A stretch of 64,000 bases of DNA from an uncultured Actinomycetes bacterium (lineage in GTDB: Bacteria; Actinomycetota; Thermoleophilia; UBA2241), in contig CAVVVA010000002.1 in NCBI GenBank assembly GCA_963751565.1, forward strand, positions 198,904-262,903. Direction: 5' to 3'. A model generated the notes under the pieces. That model was not told where the DNA came from, did no database searches, and was given only the letters and a program-made list of their open reading frames with translations. Each line of letters begins with the position of its first letter. Within the stretch, counting starts at the first letter, position 1. This document shows positions 1 through 8,814 of the stretch, piece by piece. The position numbers and the translations under genes are program-made.

Positions 1-1
1 A

Positions 2-217
2 CAGATCCGCGAGGCCAACGCCCTGTACGGCATCGGCATCGACCCCCTGGTCACGAGCATCCTCGAGACGCCGGAGGCCGGCGACCACATGCTGCTGCGC
101 GGCAGCCCGCCCGTGGGCACGTGCACCATCTGCGTGGGCAAGCGCGAGGTGGGCTGGCAGTCGCACTTTGGCGTCGTGCGCGCCCTGGACAACCTCAACT
201 TCTACCGGGGGCAGTGA
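2..217 (+). CDS. 3' end of an unidentified protein-coding gene (C-terminal ...GSPPVGTCTICVGKREVGWQSHFGVVRALDNLNFYRGQ*); product unknown
   Basis: Open frame 2 runs from the window edge to TGA at 215-217; CxxC near the C-terminus; stop lies 4 nt before the next gene's ATG. Family not recognised. Confidence 0.45.
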   Translation, partial: QIREANALYGIGIDPLVTSILETPEAGDHMLLRGSPPVGTCTICVGKREVGWQSHFGVVRALDNLNFYRGQ

Positions 218-221
218 ACCG

Positions 222-1403
<1,182 letters not shown>

Positions 1404-1417
1404 GAAGGAGCGCGAAC

Positions 1418-2329
1418 GTGACTGAAACCAACCTGAGCGAACTCGAACTGCCGGGTCTCGACTGCGGCCTGTGCGGCTTTCGTACCTGTACCGACATGGC
1501 GGCCGCGCTGCCCAACAAGCCCGACCTGCTCAAGCGCTGCATCCCGCTGGCGGCCGACTTCATGAACGTGCAAGCCGCTCCGGCCGGGTCGCGACCGGGC
1601 GACGAAGCACAGCCGGCCACAGCCGGCGCGCCGGTGGCGGCGTCGGCGCCATCGCTGAGCATCGTCAACGGCGAGGAGTGCTCGAGCTGCGATCCGGCGG
1701 CGGGCTGCGGCGCGGCCGTCAAGCACGGCTGGGGCAACGACGCCCCAGTGCTTGACGTGCCGGTCTTCGATCCCGCCATCGCCGACACCACCGCCTCGGA
1801 GACCACGGCCAACGCGGTCCCGCGCGACGTCCGCGTGAAGGTCGCCTCGTCGCTGCACAACGAGTGGCAGGACCACCTCGGCCGCGAGTTCGACTTCGTC
1901 CTCGACCACTTCCCCGAAGAGGCCGGGCCGCGCGAGCAGATCATCCCCCACAATCCCGTGATCACCCGCGAGCTCGAGATCGAGCCGGGCGAGATCCTGA
2001 TCGGCCGGCCGCTGGGCATCTCCTGCGGCTGCCCTATCACCCACTGCGGCATCGTGCAGAGCGTCGATAAGTTCACCGGCGCCATCGTCTGGTGCGTCAC
2101 CGGCCCGCTACACCCGCGTCAGCACGGCTTCAAGGACATCGCCTACTACTCGGCGCAGGCCTACGAGGGTCTGATCAACAAGGCGCGCACCGACGTCGAG
2201 ATCGGCCGCCGCTACTGGTTCCAGCCGCGCATGTGCATGATGCAGTGGCGCCACAGCGGCCTCGTGAACTTCTTGAACCGCGGCCCCGACGGCCTTCAGG
2301 TGCGCATCGAAGGGCTCTGGATCGGCTAG
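1418..2329 (+). CDS. Cys-rich protein with an N-terminal RnfB-type putative Fe-S cluster domain (CGLCGFRTCxxxAxxL) and an uncharacterised Cys-rich C-terminal domain
   Basis: GTG at 1418 preceded by AAGGAG (1404-1409); N-terminal motif LPGLDCGLCGFRTCTDMAAAL matches the Fe-S domain found at the N-terminus of RnfB (PF04060-like); C-terminal CSSCDPAAGC and SCGCPITHC clusters. Confidence 0.6.
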   Translation: MTETNLSELELPGLDCGLCGFRTCTDMAAALPNKPDLLKRCIPLAADFMNVQAAPAGSRPGDEAQPATAGAPVAASAPSLSIVNGEECSSCDPAAGCGAAVKHGWGNDAPVLDVPVFDPAIADTTASETTANAVPRDVRVKVASSLHNEWQDHLGREFDFVLDHFPEEAGPREQIIPHNPVITRELEIEPGEILIGRPLGISCGCPITHCGIVQSVDKFTGAIVWCVTGPLHPRQHGFKDIAYYSAQAYEGLINKARTDVEIGRRYWFQPRMCMMQWRHSGLVNFLNRGPDGLQVRIEGLWIG

Positions 2330-2361
2330 CGCCGCCGGCGCCCCAGCGGTGCGCTCCGGCG

Positions 2362-2394
2362 CCGCGGGCGCCGCCTGCAAGGCGGCGCCCGCGG
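2362..2394 (+). terminator. GC-rich hairpin (14-bp perfect stem ccgcgggcgccgcc / ggcggcgcccgcgg, loop tgcaa) downstream of the Fe-S protein gene
   Basis: Perfect inverted repeat read directly from the sequence; no clean U-tract follows, so intrinsic-terminator function is tentative. Confidence 0.4.
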
Positions 2395-2400
2395 TGGTCG

Positions 2401-2452
2401 GCGAAGTGGCCCCCGCCATGAGCACATGTGCTCATGGCGGGGGCCACTTCGC
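2401..2452. promoter_or_regulatory. 52-bp perfect palindrome (26+26, no loop): gcgaagtggcccccgccatgagcaca|tgtgctcatggcgggggccacttcgc
   Basis: Exact reverse-complement symmetry verified by hand; lies between the desulfurase/Fe-S operon and cysK; AT-richer core CATGAGCACATGTGCTCATG. Confidence 0.5.
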
Positions 2453-2504
2453 ATAAGAGATCCTCATTTGCCTTGCGCAACGGCCCGGAGCATACTGCCG
2501 CGGA

Positions 2505-2560
2505 GCAATACATGTGTTTGTTGATAGATTTACTGTGTTATATTCCCCTACGGCACCGTC
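2505..2560 (+). promoter_or_regulatory. locally AT-rich putative promoter region upstream of cysK (ttgata ... tatatt elements)
   Basis: Only markedly AT-rich stretch in this part of a ~70% GC window; -10-like tatatt about 35 nt upstream of the cysK ATG; spacing to candidate -35 elements is non-canonical. Confidence 0.3.
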
Positions 2561-2581
2561 GACCACGACACGGAGTGACAG

Positions 2582-3541
<960 letters not shown>

Positions 3542-3543
3542 GT

Positions 3544-3586
3544 GTTCTGAGTCACGACATTGTTCTGACTCACGACATTGTTGACA
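3544..3586. repeat. tandem direct repeat, 2 x 18 bp (gttctga[g/c]tcacgacatt) plus a partial third unit, just downstream of cysK
   Basis: Seen directly in the sequence; units contain the TGAGTCA/TGACTCA palindromic cores. Confidence 0.6.
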
Positions 3587-3587
3587 G

Positions 3588-3651
3588 GTGAGGGCCCGTC
3601 CTTCATCGGTTCGTGGCGCCCAAGCCAGAACCGAGAAGGGAGGCCCTCACG
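3588..3651. other. long-range inverted repeat (ggtgagggcc ... ggccctcac) enclosing about 45 nt; possible terminator or regulatory stem after cysK
   Basis: 9-10-bp perfect stem; followed by ggttcacggttcatgg. Confidence 0.3.
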
Positions 3652-3774
3652 GTTCACGGTTCATGGCAACGCGCGCCTGACCCGCCTTGGCAGACGTCTG
3701 CTCGTCGAACGTGGCGAGCAATGATGGACCATCGTCGCCGCCGCTCGGGCGGCGGCGCGCGATAGACTCCCCCC

Positions 3775-5028
3775 ATGAGACTGCCTGCCCGCCTCGACGT
3801 GTTGCGCCTGCGCAACTTTCGCAACCTGTTCATCGGTGAAGCCGTGTCGCTGCTGGGAGACGGCCTGTTCCCCGTGGCGCTCACCTTCGGCGTTCTCGAT
3901 CTGCACCACTCGGGCGCCGACGTCGGCATCGTGCTGGCCGCCTTCTCGTTGCCCATGGTGCTGTTCACGCTGATCGGCGGCGTGTGGTCCGACCGTCTGC
4001 GGCGGGAGTGGGTGATGATCGTCTCCGACCTGGTGCGCTTCGTCACCATGGCGGTCATCGCCGCACTGCTGCTCGGCGGCCGTGCCGAAGTCTGGAGCCT
4101 CGCCGTGCTGGGCTTCGTCTACGGCTGCGGCGACGCCTTCTTCTTTCCCGCCTACACCGCACTGATCCAGCAGATCGTGCCGCCCGACCGTCTGCAGGAA
4201 GCCAACGCCCTGCGCGGCATAGCCGACGGCTTCGGCTGGTTCGTCGGGCCGTCGATCTCGGGTCTCCTCGTCGCCCTGATCGGCGCCGGCGGGACTCTCG
4301 GCCTCGACGCCGTCACCTTTCTCGTCAGCGCCGGGTATCTGCTGACCCTGCGCGTGCCCGCTCTGCTGCGCGCCACGGCGCCGGCGACCTTCTTCGCCGA
4401 GTTGCGCGACGGCTGGCGCGAGGTGCGCTCGCGGACCTGGCTGTGGGTGATGATGCTGCGCGCCATGCTCGTGCTGTTCGTGACCATCGCGCCGCTCCAG
4501 GTGCTCGGCCCGCTGGCGATCACGGCCCGACACGAGAGCCCCGCGCTCTGGGGCCTTATGGTGGGGCTCTTCAGCCTCGGCATGCTCGGCGGCGGCCTGA
4601 TCGCCCTGTACTACCGGCCGCGGCGGCCGATGGTGACCGCCGCCCTGTGCGGCACGACGGCCTCGGTGCCCATGATCGCCCTGGCGCTCAGGCTCTCACC
4701 GGCCGGGCTCATCGCCGTCTGGTTTGCCCGCGGCGTCGCCATCGGCGTGCTCGACGCGGTCTGGAACACCACCCTGCAGGTCCGCATCGCTCCCGACTCG
4801 ATGGCCCGCGTGAGCAGCTGGGACTGGATGACGGCCGGCGGCCTGTGGCCCCTCGGACTGGTGCTCGCCGGACCGATCGCCCAGCTCATGGGCGTCACCG
4901 ACGCGCTGTGGCTGTCGGGGGCGCTGGGGCTGGCCTGCTCCCTGTGGGTCCTGTTCGTGAGGGACGTGTGGCGGCTGCGGGCGCTCCCGCCCGCAGCCGC
5001 CACGTCGGCGCCGGCGCCGACCGCCTGA
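3775..5028 (+). CDS. MFS transporter (12 predicted TM segments; enterobactin-exporter EntS-like subfamily)
   Basis: Hydrophobic periodicity and the FRNLFIGEAVSLLGDG N-terminus; paralog of the 62280..63722 gene. Confidence 0.85.
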   Translation: MRLPARLDVLRLRNFRNLFIGEAVSLLGDGLFPVALTFGVLDLHHSGADVGIVLAAFSLPMVLFTLIGGVWSDRLRREWVMIVSDLVRFVTMAVIAALLLGGRAEVWSLAVLGFVYGCGDAFFFPAYTALIQQIVPPDRLQEANALRGIADGFGWFVGPSISGLLVALIGAGGTLGLDAVTFLVSAGYLLTLRVPALLRATAPATFFAELRDGWREVRSRTWLWVMMLRAMLVLFVTIAPLQVLGPLAITARHESPALWGLMVGLFSLGMLGGGLIALYYRPRRPMVTAALCGTTASVPMIALALRLSPAGLIAVWFARGVAIGVLDAVWNTTLQVRIAPDSMARVSSWDWMTAGGLWPLGLVLAGPIAQLMGVTDALWLSGALGLACSLWVLFVRDVWRLRALPPAAATSAPAPTA

Positions 5029-5964: not shown

Positions 5965-6741
5965 ATGCAGACGGTCTCTCGTCGCTGGCAGTCGTGGAAC
6001 CCGGTCACGGGCTGCACCCACGTGTCCGCCGGCTGCGCTCACTGCTACGCCGAACGGTTCGCCGAGCGCTGGCGCGGCCTTCCGGGGCACCACTACGAGC
6101 ACGGCTTCGACCTGATGCTGCGGCCCGAACGGCTCGAGCTGCCGCTGCACTGGCGAACGCCGCGGCGCGTATTCGTGACCTCCATGGGCGATCTGTTCCA
6201 CGAAGAGGTCCCCGACGACTACGTGCGCCGGGTCTTCGCGGTCATGGAGCAGGCCCGCTGGCACGTGTTTCACGTCCTGACCAAGCGCGAGGGGCGGCTG
6301 CTCGCGCTCTCGACCGAACTGCCCTGGCCGGCCAACGTCCACCTGGGCGTGACCGTCGAGAGCATGGCCTGTGCGCGGCGCGCCGACGCGCTGCGCGCCG
6401 TGCCGGCGGCGGTGCGGCACATCAGTGCCGAACCGCTGCTCGGACCGCTCGACGAGCTCGACCTGACGGGGATCGACTGGGTGATCGCCGGCGGCGAGTC
6501 GGGGCCTGCGCGCCGTCCCCCGCGGCCGGAGTGGCTGCGCGGCCTGCGCGACCACTGCCTGGCCACGGGTGTGGCATTCATGTTCAAGGGATGGGGCGGC
6601 CGCGTCCAGAACGCCCGGGGGAGGATGCTCGACGGCCGCGAGTGGAACGAGCGGCCGTCGGACCCGGCGTTCGACGAGGCCGGCGCGACCGCCGACTCCG
6701 TCGGGGTCGCGCGTCAGGCCACTCTCTGGGATGCGCCCTGA
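5965..6741 (+). CDS. DUF5131 / phage Gp37-Gp68 family protein (three-Cys-motif, radical-SAM-like)
   Basis: CTHVSAGCAHCY (Cx6Cx2C) near the N-terminus, then ...ISAEPLLGPLD...IDWVIAGGESG, characteristic of the Gp37/Gp68 family. Confidence 0.75.
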   Translation: MQTVSRRWQSWNPVTGCTHVSAGCAHCYAERFAERWRGLPGHHYEHGFDLMLRPERLELPLHWRTPRRVFVTSMGDLFHEEVPDDYVRRVFAVMEQARWHVFHVLTKREGRLLALSTELPWPANVHLGVTVESMACARRADALRAVPAAVRHISAEPLLGPLDELDLTGIDWVIAGGESGPARRPPRPEWLRGLRDHCLATGVAFMFKGWGGRVQNARGRMLDGREWNERPSDPAFDEAGATADSVGVARQATLWDAP

Positions 6742-6896
6742 GGCGCGTCGGCCGTGGGCGCCGGCTGCGGCGCCGGCTCACGGCGGCCTTCGCCGACGGT
6801 CTCGACTTCGTGTCCGCCGCAGTGTGGGCACAGCGTCATGCTGACGCTGCTCTCGGCGACCACGCGAGAGAGTTCGAAGCGATGCCCGCACGACAT
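6714..6896 (-). CDS. FmdB-family zinc-ribbon protein (CxxC...CxxC)
   Basis: MSCGHRFE...CPHCGG pattern; start taken at the internal ATG at 6896, but an upstream TTG/CTG is possible. Confidence 0.5.
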   Translation of the reverse strand: MSCGHRFELSRVVAESSVSMTLCPHCGGHEVETVGEGRREPAPQPAPTADAPQGASQRVA

Positions 6897-7926: not shown

Positions 7927-8814
7927 CTAGCGCTGCCCCGTCTCGCGTTTGAACTTCTCGAGGAAGGCGTCGTAGTCGCGGTCGATCAGATCGGCGTCGG
8001 GCAGGCGCGCGGGAGCGCCCGAAGGGTCGTCGAGAGCGCGCGAGCCGGCCGGTGTGCCGGCCGCCGTGCCGTCGGCCGCCTCGTCGGCAGCCGCATCGAG
8101 CGTGCCGGCGTCCGTATCCTCCTGTGGCGGGGCGTCTCGTGGCGGGGCGTCTCGTGGCGGGGCGTCTCGTGGCGAAGCGTCGCCGAGCGCATCGCCGTCG
8201 CCGTAGCGGCCCGGGTCGCGCCGCTCCCTGATGTCGACCAGCGCGTCGACCACCCAGGGCTTGGCGTCGCGGTCTCGCAGGCTCATCTGGAGGCGTTCGA
8301 CGGCGGGCTCGCCGATGTCGACGAGCATCTCGGAGGCCGCCTGCTTGAGCCGCTCGTCGCCGGGCCCCTCGAGGACCTCGATCAGCCCCAGGACGAGGTC
8401 GCCCTGGCGCATGGCGTCCAGGACGGAAAGCGCGTTCTCGGTGCGCGGCGGCACGTTGGGGCTGCGGGTCGCCGCCTCGAGCAGGGCGCCGACCGCGCCG
8501 GCCACCGAGATCACGTCGCGCAGGCTGAGATCTGGGGGCGCTTCGCCCAGCGCGGCTCCGAGGAGCACCTCGACCACGCCCGGGCCGCGGCGGATCATCT
8601 TGGCGGAAACCTCGTTCAGCAGCGGCAGCGTGCTCGCGTCGAGCGGCAGGTCGAGGAGCGCCACGAGAACCTCGTCGGCGGTGCCGTCGTCGGCCTCGTC
8701 GACGAACTCGGCGAGCTGCTCCTCGGCATACTCCAGAGCGTCGGGGTCGCCCTCGTCCAGCGCGTCGGTGAACGCGTCGACGAGCTGGCGGGCAACCGCG
8801 ACATCCGGGTCCAT
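7927..8814 (-). CDS. HEAT-repeat (PBS-lyase-like) protein with internal PRDAP tandem repeats
   Basis: Repeated ...ALLDL..D...VR..A..AL... helical-repeat pattern; encodes PRDAPPRDAPPRDAP. Confidence 0.6.
   Translation of the reverse strand: MDPDVAVARQLVDAFTDALDEGDPDALEYAEEQLAEFVDEADDGTADEVLVALLDLPLDASTLPLLNEVSAKMIRRGPGVVEVLLGAALGEAPPDLSLRDVISVAGAVGALLEAATRSPNVPPRTENALSVLDAMRQGDLVLGLIEVLEGPGDERLKQAASEMLVDIGEPAVERLQMSLRDRDAKPWVVDALVDIRERRDPGRYGDGDALGDASPRDAPPRDAPPRDAPPQEDTDAGTLDAAADEAADGTAAGTPAGSRALDDPSGAPARLPDADLIDRDYDAFLEKFKRETGQR
8124..8183. repeat. 15-bp tandem repeat x about 4 (tggcggggcgtctcg) inside the HEAT-repeat gene
   Basis: Seen in the sequence; encodes the PRDAP repeats on the minus strand. 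Confidence 0.7.

Follow-up and report, generated by a model that had tools for sequence, protein, structure and literature searches.

A conserved operon around the Fe-S protein gene

What is the role of a cysteine-rich iron-sulfur (Fe-S) protein whose gene lies between those of a cysteine desulfurase and a cysteine synthase? The question was raised by positions 1418 to 2329 of a 64,000-nucleotide stretch of DNA from an uncultured bacterium of the Thermoleophilia (contig CAVVVA010000002.1, positions 198,904 to 262,903; hereafter the window). A sequence-only reading of this stretch had ascribed to the encoded protein an N-terminal Fe-S domain of the RnfB/corrinoid protein type and an unrecognised remainder, and had proposed it as a dedicated sulfur- or Fe-S-trafficking partner of the desulfurase. 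Our analysis confirmed the observation and partly supported the interpretation, placing the protein in an operon with two nucleoside triphosphatases (NTPases) in addition to the desulfurase. The operon genes and signals that lie within the window are as follows.

2 to 217, plus strand: 3′ end of the gene for a P-loop GTPase of the G3E family (HypB/UreG/CobW-like), comprising the last 71 codons and a TGA stop; the rest is upstream of the window
222 to 1403, plus strand: cysteine desulfurase of the NifS/IscS class (class I), 393 amino acids (aa), with the active-site loop SSGSAC
1404 to 1410, plus strand: Shine-Dalgarno sequence GAAGGAG, read directly from the sequence, 7 nucleotides (nt) before the GTG
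1418 to 2329, plus strand: gene of the two-domain, "COG2000-type" Fe-S protein, 303 aa, with GTG at 1418 and TAG at 2327-2329

The start and stop codons bore out the open reading frame (ORF) as originally drawn, and the strong ribosome-binding site and 14-nt spacing after the desulfurase gene, whose TAA stop occupies 1401-1403, were also as described. The N-terminus MTETNLSELELPGLDCG aligns with homologues from the first residues, which supports the GTG start. The protein sequence is identical to GenBank MGD0998181.1, a "(Fe-S)-binding protein" from a Thermoleophilia metagenome-assembled genome (MAG), and 2156 homologues were found with an expect value (E) of 1e-3 or better.

To place the gene in its genomic setting, one genome per GTDB species was scanned with patterns specific to the bacterial clade of the family. 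Relatives of the Fe-S protein were encoded in at least 448 of 185,579 species representatives, a lower bound because of the clade specificity of the patterns. The 80 best loci, all from MAGs, were kept; they come from Thermoleophilia and other Actinomycetota, Chloroflexota, Planctomycetota, Omnitrophota, Elusimicrobiota, Acidobacteriota, Verrucomicrobiota, Hydrogenedentota, Sumerlaeota, Myxococcota and others. ORF calling by script was crude; NCBIfam models served to confirm the identity of named neighbours in the cited loci only. Synteny analysis by tblastn revealed one gene order on one strand, ABC > G3E GTPase > [NifS] > Fe-S gene, where ABC denotes an ATP-binding cassette ATPase, in every locus with enough upstream DNA. 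The ABC ATPase was present in 73 of 73 and the GTPase in 76 of 76 informative bacterial loci, and the 71-aa GTPase tail seen in the window lay directly upstream of the NifS or Fe-S gene in 76 of the 80 loci, with 59-99% identity. In 62 of 78 informative loci (79%), distributed over many phyla, NifS was the gene directly before the Fe-S gene; it was absent from that position in the other 16, one of which has NifS downstream. The consistent neighbourhood of a NifS-type gene that the sequence-only reading anticipated was thus found, and the desulfurase partnership stands to this extent; the invariant partners, however, are the ABC-type ATPase and the G3E GTPase, not NifS. Neither was visible to that reading, as the window begins within the GTPase gene.

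Properties of the operon partners

The partners upstream of the window were characterised in two loci: L001, a close orthologous locus with a best-segment identity of 94%, and L089, a contig with the gene order ABC > cobW > NifS > FeS whose Fe-S protein is identical to that of the window. Full-length GTPase orthologues of 232 aa are encoded there at 6102-6800 and 1898-2599, respectively. They match PF02492 cobW (E 3.8e-11) and, far below the equivalog cut-off, TIGR00073 hypB, and they contain the motifs GPATTGKT (Walker A), LLVETAG (Walker B with the G3E-defining Glu) and TKGD. A C-P-D-H segment aligns on the metal ligands "CH" of HypB (2wsm) and "CPH" of UreG (4hi0), and the Cys of an LRC segment aligns on the HypB Cys after Walker B. 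The alignment shows conservation of the metal site, and the GTPase is accordingly a putative metal-binding protein. Its tail within the window carries a conserved C-terminal CxxC (GTCTICVGK).

In both loci the GTPase gene is preceded by that of the ABC-type ATPase, 262-273 aa in length, which gave only the generic PF00005 match and has no permease or membrane partner. The desulfurase of the window matched PF00266 (E 2.7e-77) and reached 455 bits against the TIGR03402 NifS model, below the equivalog cut-off of 530.75.

Domain architecture of the Fe-S protein

Comparison with homologues and structure modelling divided the protein into three parts.

1448 to 1546, plus strand: N-terminal [4Fe-4S]-binding domain (residues 11-43; PF04060), with ligand Cys C16, C19, C24 and C41
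1550 to 1858, plus strand: variable Ala/Pro-rich linker (residues 45-147), 22% mean pairwise identity among 30 homologues, predicted local distance difference test (pLDDT) score below 50
1859 to 2326, plus strand: conserved all-beta C-terminal domain (residues 148-303), defined by the alignments and an AlphaFold2 model of homologue P0295

The N-terminal motif reads C16-G-L-C19-G-F-R-T-C24-T-D-M-A, and residues 11-43 match PF04060 "FeS" with E 2.4e-8 (34 bits against a gathering cut-off of 23). This model was matched by all 54 family members tested, in which the four Cys, spaced CX2CX4CX16C, are invariant. When a profile of the 54 members was compared with all PDB sequences, it matched only the [4Fe-4S] domain of the large subunit of the corrinoid Fe-S protein (CoFeSP; 4djd_C, E 3.7e-6) and RnfB (7zc6_B, 9eri_B), with the ligand Cys of the window protein aligned to CGECGTPTC...C of 4djd_C. 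By these profile matches, the domain is an Fe-S domain of the RnfB/CoFeSP type, with a similarity above chance, as the sequence-only reading held. The protein as a whole was identified with neither family. Against RnfB stand a TIGR01944 score of 20.6 bits (cut-off 68.7) over the FeS domain only, the lack of a Fer4 Pfam match, and neighbours that are NifS and cysK rather than an rnf operon; the CoFeSP large subunit (AcsC/CdhE) model NF003195 gave 12 bits (cut-off 306), over residues 11-47 only.

The three Cys motifs pointed out beforehand are all present in the sequence, and they differ in conservation. In the linker motif C88-S-S-C91-D-P-A-A-G-C97, only C88 and C91, a CxxC common in the bacterial clade, are conserved, and this within that clade only; C97 is not. 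The linker was modelled as disordered by AlphaFold2, and its length in 70 parsed loci ranged up to 119 aa with a median of 61, the minimum of 0 being partly a parsing artefact. What had been taken for a single unrecognised domain of about 200 aa is hence this variable linker followed by the domain of residues 148-303; that the latter matches no family model held true. A role of the linker CxxC as a NifS-specific persulfide acceptor was considered and rejected, in that linkers without CxxC occur both with an adjacent NifS (L033, L047, L066, L072) and without one; no correlation was seen, in a tally partly distorted by the regular expression used.

The C-terminal domain is by far the better conserved part, with 77% mean pairwise identity and 78 of its 156 positions invariant among 30 homologues from Thermoleophilia, Chloroflexota and others. 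It contains the second Cys cluster, S202-C-G-C-P-I-T-H-C210. An exhaustive HMMER search with this domain alone against 1.84 billion cluster representatives returned 136 clusters, including divergent full-length members of 200-230 aa, and an alignment of the divergent members reduced the superfamily-invariant core to R172, P198, C205-P206, H209, G229-P230, E250-G251, F268, P270, C273-M274, H279 and G281. The segments C205-P-x-x-H209 and C273-M-x4-H279 are thus invariant throughout the superfamily, and two Cys and two His are the sole invariant side chains with ligand character; the bacterial clade has three further Cys of its own, C203, C210 and C226.

No Pfam or NCBIfam model matched the C-terminal domain in any of the 54 family members, and neither sequence nor fold searches found a relative of it in the PDB. 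The description of this domain as unrecognised therefore stands as far as family models are concerned, although the family itself has been named in a 2025 study of methanogens (PMC12068725; see below). Several candidate relatives were rejected. Matches to Lambda_tail_I, Thiolase_C and N-acetylglutamate synthase were below threshold and mutually inconsistent, and a match to alpha-1-syntrophin in a single-sequence PDB search (E 0.014) lay over the low-complexity linker and was judged spurious. A Rieske-type [2Fe-2S] protein was dismissed because the motifs are C-P-x-x-H and C-M-x4-H instead of CxH...CxxH, with no PF00355 match and no Rieske protein among the fold matches. The window protein also showed no sequence or fold similarity to the Fe-S scaffold families IscU/NifU/SufU and SufB/SufD.

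A first AlphaFold2 model, of the full-length protein with 30 close homologues, reached a pLDDT of only 47.5 and was replaced by a model of P0295, a short-linker homologue 62% identical overall to the window protein, built with a diverse alignment of 54 sequences. The latter had a pLDDT of 87.4 and a predicted template modelling score (pTM) of 0.69, with the C-terminal domain mostly above 90. The modelled domain is all-beta, with about 10 strands and two short helices, and its fold is apparently new. Its invariant Cys/His pairs lie in two loops, each running into a strand: in P0295 numbering, C115 and H119 (C205 and H209 of the window protein) lead into strand 119-126, and C183 and H189 (C273 and H279) into strand 189-199.

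This architecture bears on the simplest account of the protein, namely that it is only a ferredoxin-like electron-transfer subunit or a redox sensor whose neighbours reflect operon drift. Its sole recognisable domain is indeed of the electron-transfer [4Fe-4S] type common to RnfB and CoFeSP. However, the strongest selection acts on the C-terminal domain and not on the cluster domain, and the gene keeps an invariant order and translational coupling to two NTPases across Bacteria and Archaea. We consider this account very improbable.

Sulfur-assimilation context in bacteria

The genes flanking the operon in bacteria include sbp-cysTWA, cysDN, cysK, metY, thi4 and genes of Cys-free Rrf2 regulators. 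In Thermoguttaceae the order is sbp > ABC > GTPase > [NifS] > Fe-S > cysT > cysW > cysA (identities by NCBIfam equivalogs), with the stop of the Fe-S gene overlapping the start of cysT. An Omnitrophota locus carries metY, cysK, metX, metW and genes for a sulfide-dependent ADP-thiazole synthase and an Rrf2 protein before the triad of ABC, GTPase and Fe-S genes, and cysD and cysNC lie beside the module in an Elusimicrobiota locus. Within 8 kb on either side, neither cysH nor cysI was seen in the inspected loci, as judged from ORF clustering and maps read by eye, with no search using cysH or cysI queries. An Rrf2 regulator gene was present upstream in 31 loci. The Rrf2 neighbours lack the cluster-ligand Cys, and 26 of 42 have no Cys at all; they therefore resemble CymR of Bacillus subtilis rather than IscR, and regulation of the IscR type was rejected on account of the missing cluster Cys.

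Three further observations concern these neighbourhoods. In the Thermoleophilia lineage, the gene next upstream of that for the ABC ATPase (L089 686-955; L001 4908-5138; also L002, L003, L005, L008 and L011) encodes a small DUF2292 protein, which resembles the sulfur-starvation protein OscA (NF033785, 54.6 bits, E 7.8e-15, below the cut-off of 85). The operon is preceded in Chloroflexota, at about 4.1-5.2 kb, by a tandem pair of paralogous genes of Cys-free or Cys-poor Rrf2 proteins, about 40-46% identical to each other (L013-L017, L022-L024, L027, L029, L034). Downstream of the operon in an Anaerolineales MAG (L024 10518-13232), two DsrE-like, one GcvH/LbpA-like, one thioredoxin-like and one HdrC-like CCG-motif ORF were recognised by eye from their translations, a set reminiscent of sHdr-type sulfur oxidation clusters.

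These data bear on the possibility that the module is a general housekeeping Fe-S assembly system, an alternative to NIF, ISC, SUF, MIS and SMS, in which NifS would be the sulfur donor, the ABC protein a counterpart of SufC, the GTPase an iron donor and the Fe-S protein a scaffold with a built-in electron donor. The part list parallels those of SufS-SufBC2D and IscS-IscU-Fdx, the Cys/His pattern is scaffold-like, and the operon is kept beside ftsZ and tsaD in a genome-reduced DPANN archaeon. On the other hand, the associated regulators are Cys-free, CymR-like Rrf2 proteins and not IscR or SufR, the surveyed loci have no conserved IscU, IscA, SufB, HscAB or ferredoxin genes nearby, and the neighbourhoods are specifically those of sulfur assimilation or coenzyme M synthesis. 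Moreover, a family that reaches only some 448 of the 185,579 species representatives cannot be the main Fe-S system in most lineages. A housekeeping assembly role is therefore unlikely in our judgement.

Downstream of the Fe-S gene, the window contains two more features of the same neighbourhood.

2357 to 2452, plus strand: two adjacent GC-rich hairpins with perfect stems of 16 bp and 24 bp, between the Fe-S gene and cysK (-116 kcal/mol, z = -9.2 by RNA folding)
2582 to 3541, plus strand: cysK, O-acetylserine sulfhydrylase A (TIGR01139, 459.7 bits, cut-off 350.95)

The position of the Fe-S gene between desulfurase and cysteine synthase genes was correctly read, and both flanks were identified; cysK, however, is not coupled, being separated by 252 nt with the two hairpins and found downstream in only about 16 of 80 loci. 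It belongs to the same sulfur neighbourhood as a transcription unit of its own and is not a coupled partner. The hairpins are terminator-like but lack a U-tract, and were consequently missed by a consensus promoter and terminator scan of positions 1-3800, which found nothing. Their palindrome occurs once in the window, and equivalent hairpins of different sequence are present in the orthologous locus (L001 8950-9040). Near the gene, an Rfam search gave only a meaningless sub-threshold match of mir-9209 to the hairpin, and it detected no riboswitch upstream of cysK.

An AT-richer stretch upstream of cysK (2460-2580), partly conserved with L001 9040-9165 (for example ATACTGCC...ACATGT(G)TTTGTTGATAG), may be the cysK promoter or an operator. 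Directly after the cysK stop, an 18-nt direct repeat, TGTTCTGACTCACGACAT, is present in 2.2 copies with 95% match (3543-3582).

Archaeal and divergent relatives

The family extends to methanogens: the legend of Fig. 2 of Chadwick et al. (2025; PLoS Genet, PMC12068725) names a "COG2000 domain Fe-S protein" whose gene lies next to coenzyme M genes, along with those of an ATPase and a GTPase that binds Ni. By that legend the family is not wholly undescribed. The recovered loci reproduce the arrangement given there, which led us to equate the family with that protein, a link made by gene context only and not by a COG2000 model. In four loci of the Methanoculleus type, the genes ABC > cobW > FeS > MMP16 (TIGR03287, 503 bits) > cysteate synthase (654 bits) > sulfopyruvate decarboxylase (ComDE) follow one another, all translationally coupled. 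The Methanoculleus homologue P0298 (WP_324304210.1) shows 35% identity, was recovered by the family profile with E 1.9e-75, aligns over both domains, and shares C205, P206, H209, C273, M274 and H279. The triad without NifS is present in archaeal relatives, and a bare triad was found on a TFIIB-encoding archaeal contig and on a WOR-3 contig. Searches of the literature on PF04060, on COG2000 and on combinations of desulfurase, G3E and ABC proteins found no functional study and no account of the bacterial NifS-containing operon. In Methanosarcina acetivorans, the genes flanking MA3297-3299 (MA3294 and MA3300) encode a C-N hydrolase and a MoaD/ThiS protein and not the triad, so that the transcriptome tables of PMC12068725 gave no expression evidence for it.

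Two divergent loci deserve mention. A MAG of the Micrarchaeaceae (DPANN) contains a complete ABC > cobW > NifS > Fe-S operon beside ftsZ and tsaD/RIO kinase genes (L093 3314-6708), which would be unexpected in a reduced genome if the role were amino-acid sulfur assimilation alone. In a bacterial locus (L083 8001-16642), the triad lies inside a glycan cluster of the pseudaminic-acid type (PseG-like protein, NeuB, CTP transferase, aminotransferases). Cysteate synthase and the alpha subunit of sulfopyruvate decarboxylase are encoded there as well, MMP16 is not, and this suggests the synthesis of a sulfonated sugar substituent.

Taken together, the contexts, namely sulfate uptake and activation, the sulfide consumers CysK, MetY and Thi4, the coenzyme M synthase MMP16, and cysteate synthase, assign the module to the assimilation of sulfur and the synthesis of thiol cofactors. 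They are also relevant to another explanation, according to which the Fe-S protein is itself a new redox metalloenzyme: at a metal bound by the Cys2His2 site and fed from the [4Fe-4S] domain, it would interconvert sulfide with sulfite, thiosulfate or persulfide, and the GTPase, the ABC protein and NifS would be no more than maturation factors comparable to UreG/HypB, CooC and NifS. G3E GTPases are cofactor or metal insertases for client enzymes encoded nearby, and in the partner GTPase the metal ligands of this established role are conserved. Sulfite is common to the cysteine and coenzyme M contexts: the bacterial loci combine sulfate uptake and activation genes with no cysH or cysI seen, the archaeal loci carry cysteate synthase, a sulfite consumer, and the glycan-cluster locus pairs the triad with cysteate synthase and sulfopyruvate decarboxylase while lacking MMP16. 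Half of the C-terminal positions are invariant, as is typical of an active site. Nevertheless, so small a non-haem catalytic domain is unmatched among known sulfite and sulfur reductases, a six-electron reduction at a mononuclear site has no known precedent, and the DPANN operon is retained without sulfur-assimilation neighbours; the absence of cysH and cysI, furthermore, was judged within 8 kb and not genome-wide. We regard a catalytic role of this kind, the main rival to the reading favoured below, as rather unlikely, though less so than a housekeeping assembly system.

A proposed role for the module

The reading that we tentatively favour, while giving it somewhat less than an even chance, is that the Fe-S protein acts as the redox-active acceptor or scaffold of an NTPase-assisted module for the joint mobilisation of sulfur and metal, fed by NifS in bacteria and by sulfide in archaea. 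It is preferred on account of the parts (NifS, a metallochaperone-type GTPase, a soluble ABC ATPase, and a cluster tethered to a Cys/His domain) combined with the sulfur contexts, and the part set is what would be expected for building or handing over metal-sulfur species. In this scheme, NifS would take sulfur from cysteine as a persulfide and deliver it to the Cys-rich beta domain, free sulfide replacing NifS in sulfidic archaea. The tethered [4Fe-4S] domain would give the electrons for the reduction of S0 to S2-, the GTPase would load the Cys2His2 site with an Fe or Ni ion, and the ABC ATPase would power assembly or release. The product may be a labile metal-bound sulfide or a small metal-sulfur centre, which would pass to those enzymes of sulfur assimilation and thiol-cofactor synthesis that depend on sulfide or on clusters.

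Several points weigh against this acceptor or scaffold role. A catalytic metalloenzyme with dedicated maturases fits the part list equally well. The linker CxxC is not correlated with the presence of NifS, and the absence of NifS from 16 bacterial loci and from archaeal clades implies that it is not obligatory. The residues C205, H209, C273 and H279 are only presumed to converge on one site. All comparative loci are contigs of MAGs, and the sole published mention that we found (PMC12068725) gives the role of the protein, in its figure legend, as unknown.

The module, three or four genes in size, varies little among Thermoleophilia, Chloroflexota, Planctomycetota, Omnitrophota, methanogens and a DPANN archaeon. 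Its components are all typical of metallocentre assembly: a GTPase of the metallochaperone type, a soluble ABC ATPase, a desulfurase and a redox protein rich in Cys and His. The module sits at loci with unassigned steps, namely the supply of sulfur and electrons to COG1900 enzymes and the completion of sulfur assimilation in some anaerobes. To our knowledge, the source of sulfite for coenzyme M in methanogens is one such step, and a literature search on it found no functional study. In its broadest form the proposal is that the ABC ATPase, G3E GTPase and COG2000 Fe-S protein, with NifS in bacteria, constitute an unrecognised machine for metal-sulfur biogenesis and sulfur mobilisation distinct from NIF, ISC, SUF, MIS and SMS, or else a new, possibly Ni- or Fe-dependent enzyme of undescribed fold. 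Such an enzyme would provide inorganic sulfur, reduced or oxidised, to the synthesis of cysteine, methionine and thiamin in bacteria and of coenzyme M in methanogens. In this general form the proposal appears doubtful. A defined function could add a new route of sulfur or Fe-S trafficking or a new metalloenzyme, and the module offers testable targets, some of them in cultivable methanogens.

Other features of the window

Elsewhere in the window, positions 5965-6741 encode a DUF5131 protein (PF07505, E 7.8e-85) with a Cys-rich N-terminus (CTHVSAGCAHC). A perfect 15-nt tandem repeat of 3.4 copies at 8124-8174 gives rise to pentapeptide repeats in long ORFs of both strands (GVSWR on the plus and RDAPP on the minus strand), and the minus-strand one of these ORFs, at 7927-8814, had no Pfam match.

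Comparison with known systems

The known systems closest to the module share individual parts with it. With the CoFeSP large subunit (AcsC/CdhE; 4djd_C, 2h9a_A) and RnfB (7zc6_B), the window protein has in common the CX2CX4CX16C motif and a match at the level of the domain. The rest is unrelated: the window protein lacks a TIM-barrel/corrinoid domain, Fer4 domains and a membrane anchor, and its gene is not part of an rnf or acs operon. The likeness to Rieske proteins is limited to a composition of two Cys and two His on two loops.

As in NifS-NifU, IscS-IscU-Fdx and SufS-SufBC2D, a class I desulfurase gene is translationally coupled to that of a Cys/His-rich acceptor. The ABC-type ATPase without a permease resembles SufC, and the electron-donating Fe-S module recalls Fdx and the central domain of NifU. 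Unlike NIF, ISC and SUF, however, the module shows no similarity to IscU, NifU or SufB, includes a G3E GTPase, is accompanied by a CymR-like rather than an IscR-like regulator, and lies in a sulfur-assimilation context.

HypB with [NiFe] hydrogenase and UreG with urease provide the parallel for the GTPase, which has the G3E Walker B Glu and the aligned Cys/His of HypB and UreG and is encoded beside a putative client with an invariant Cys2His2 motif. In contrast to those systems, the client belongs to no known class of Ni, Co or Zn enzymes, partners of the HypA, UreE and UreF types are lacking, and the GTPase has a unique conserved C-terminal CxxC extension.

The nearest relative is the methanogen COG2000 Fe-S protein, in which PF04060, the C-terminal domain with CP..H and CM....H, and the triad ABC > cobW-like GTPase > Fe-S are the same as in bacteria. 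The bacterial clade differs from it in three extra invariant Cys (C203, C210 and C226), a linker that is usually long and carries CxxC, and, in most cases, a NifS gene inserted before the Fe-S gene. The surroundings differ as well, with cys, met and sulfate-transport genes and Cys-free Rrf2 regulators in bacteria, and MMP16, cysteate synthase and ComDE in methanogens.

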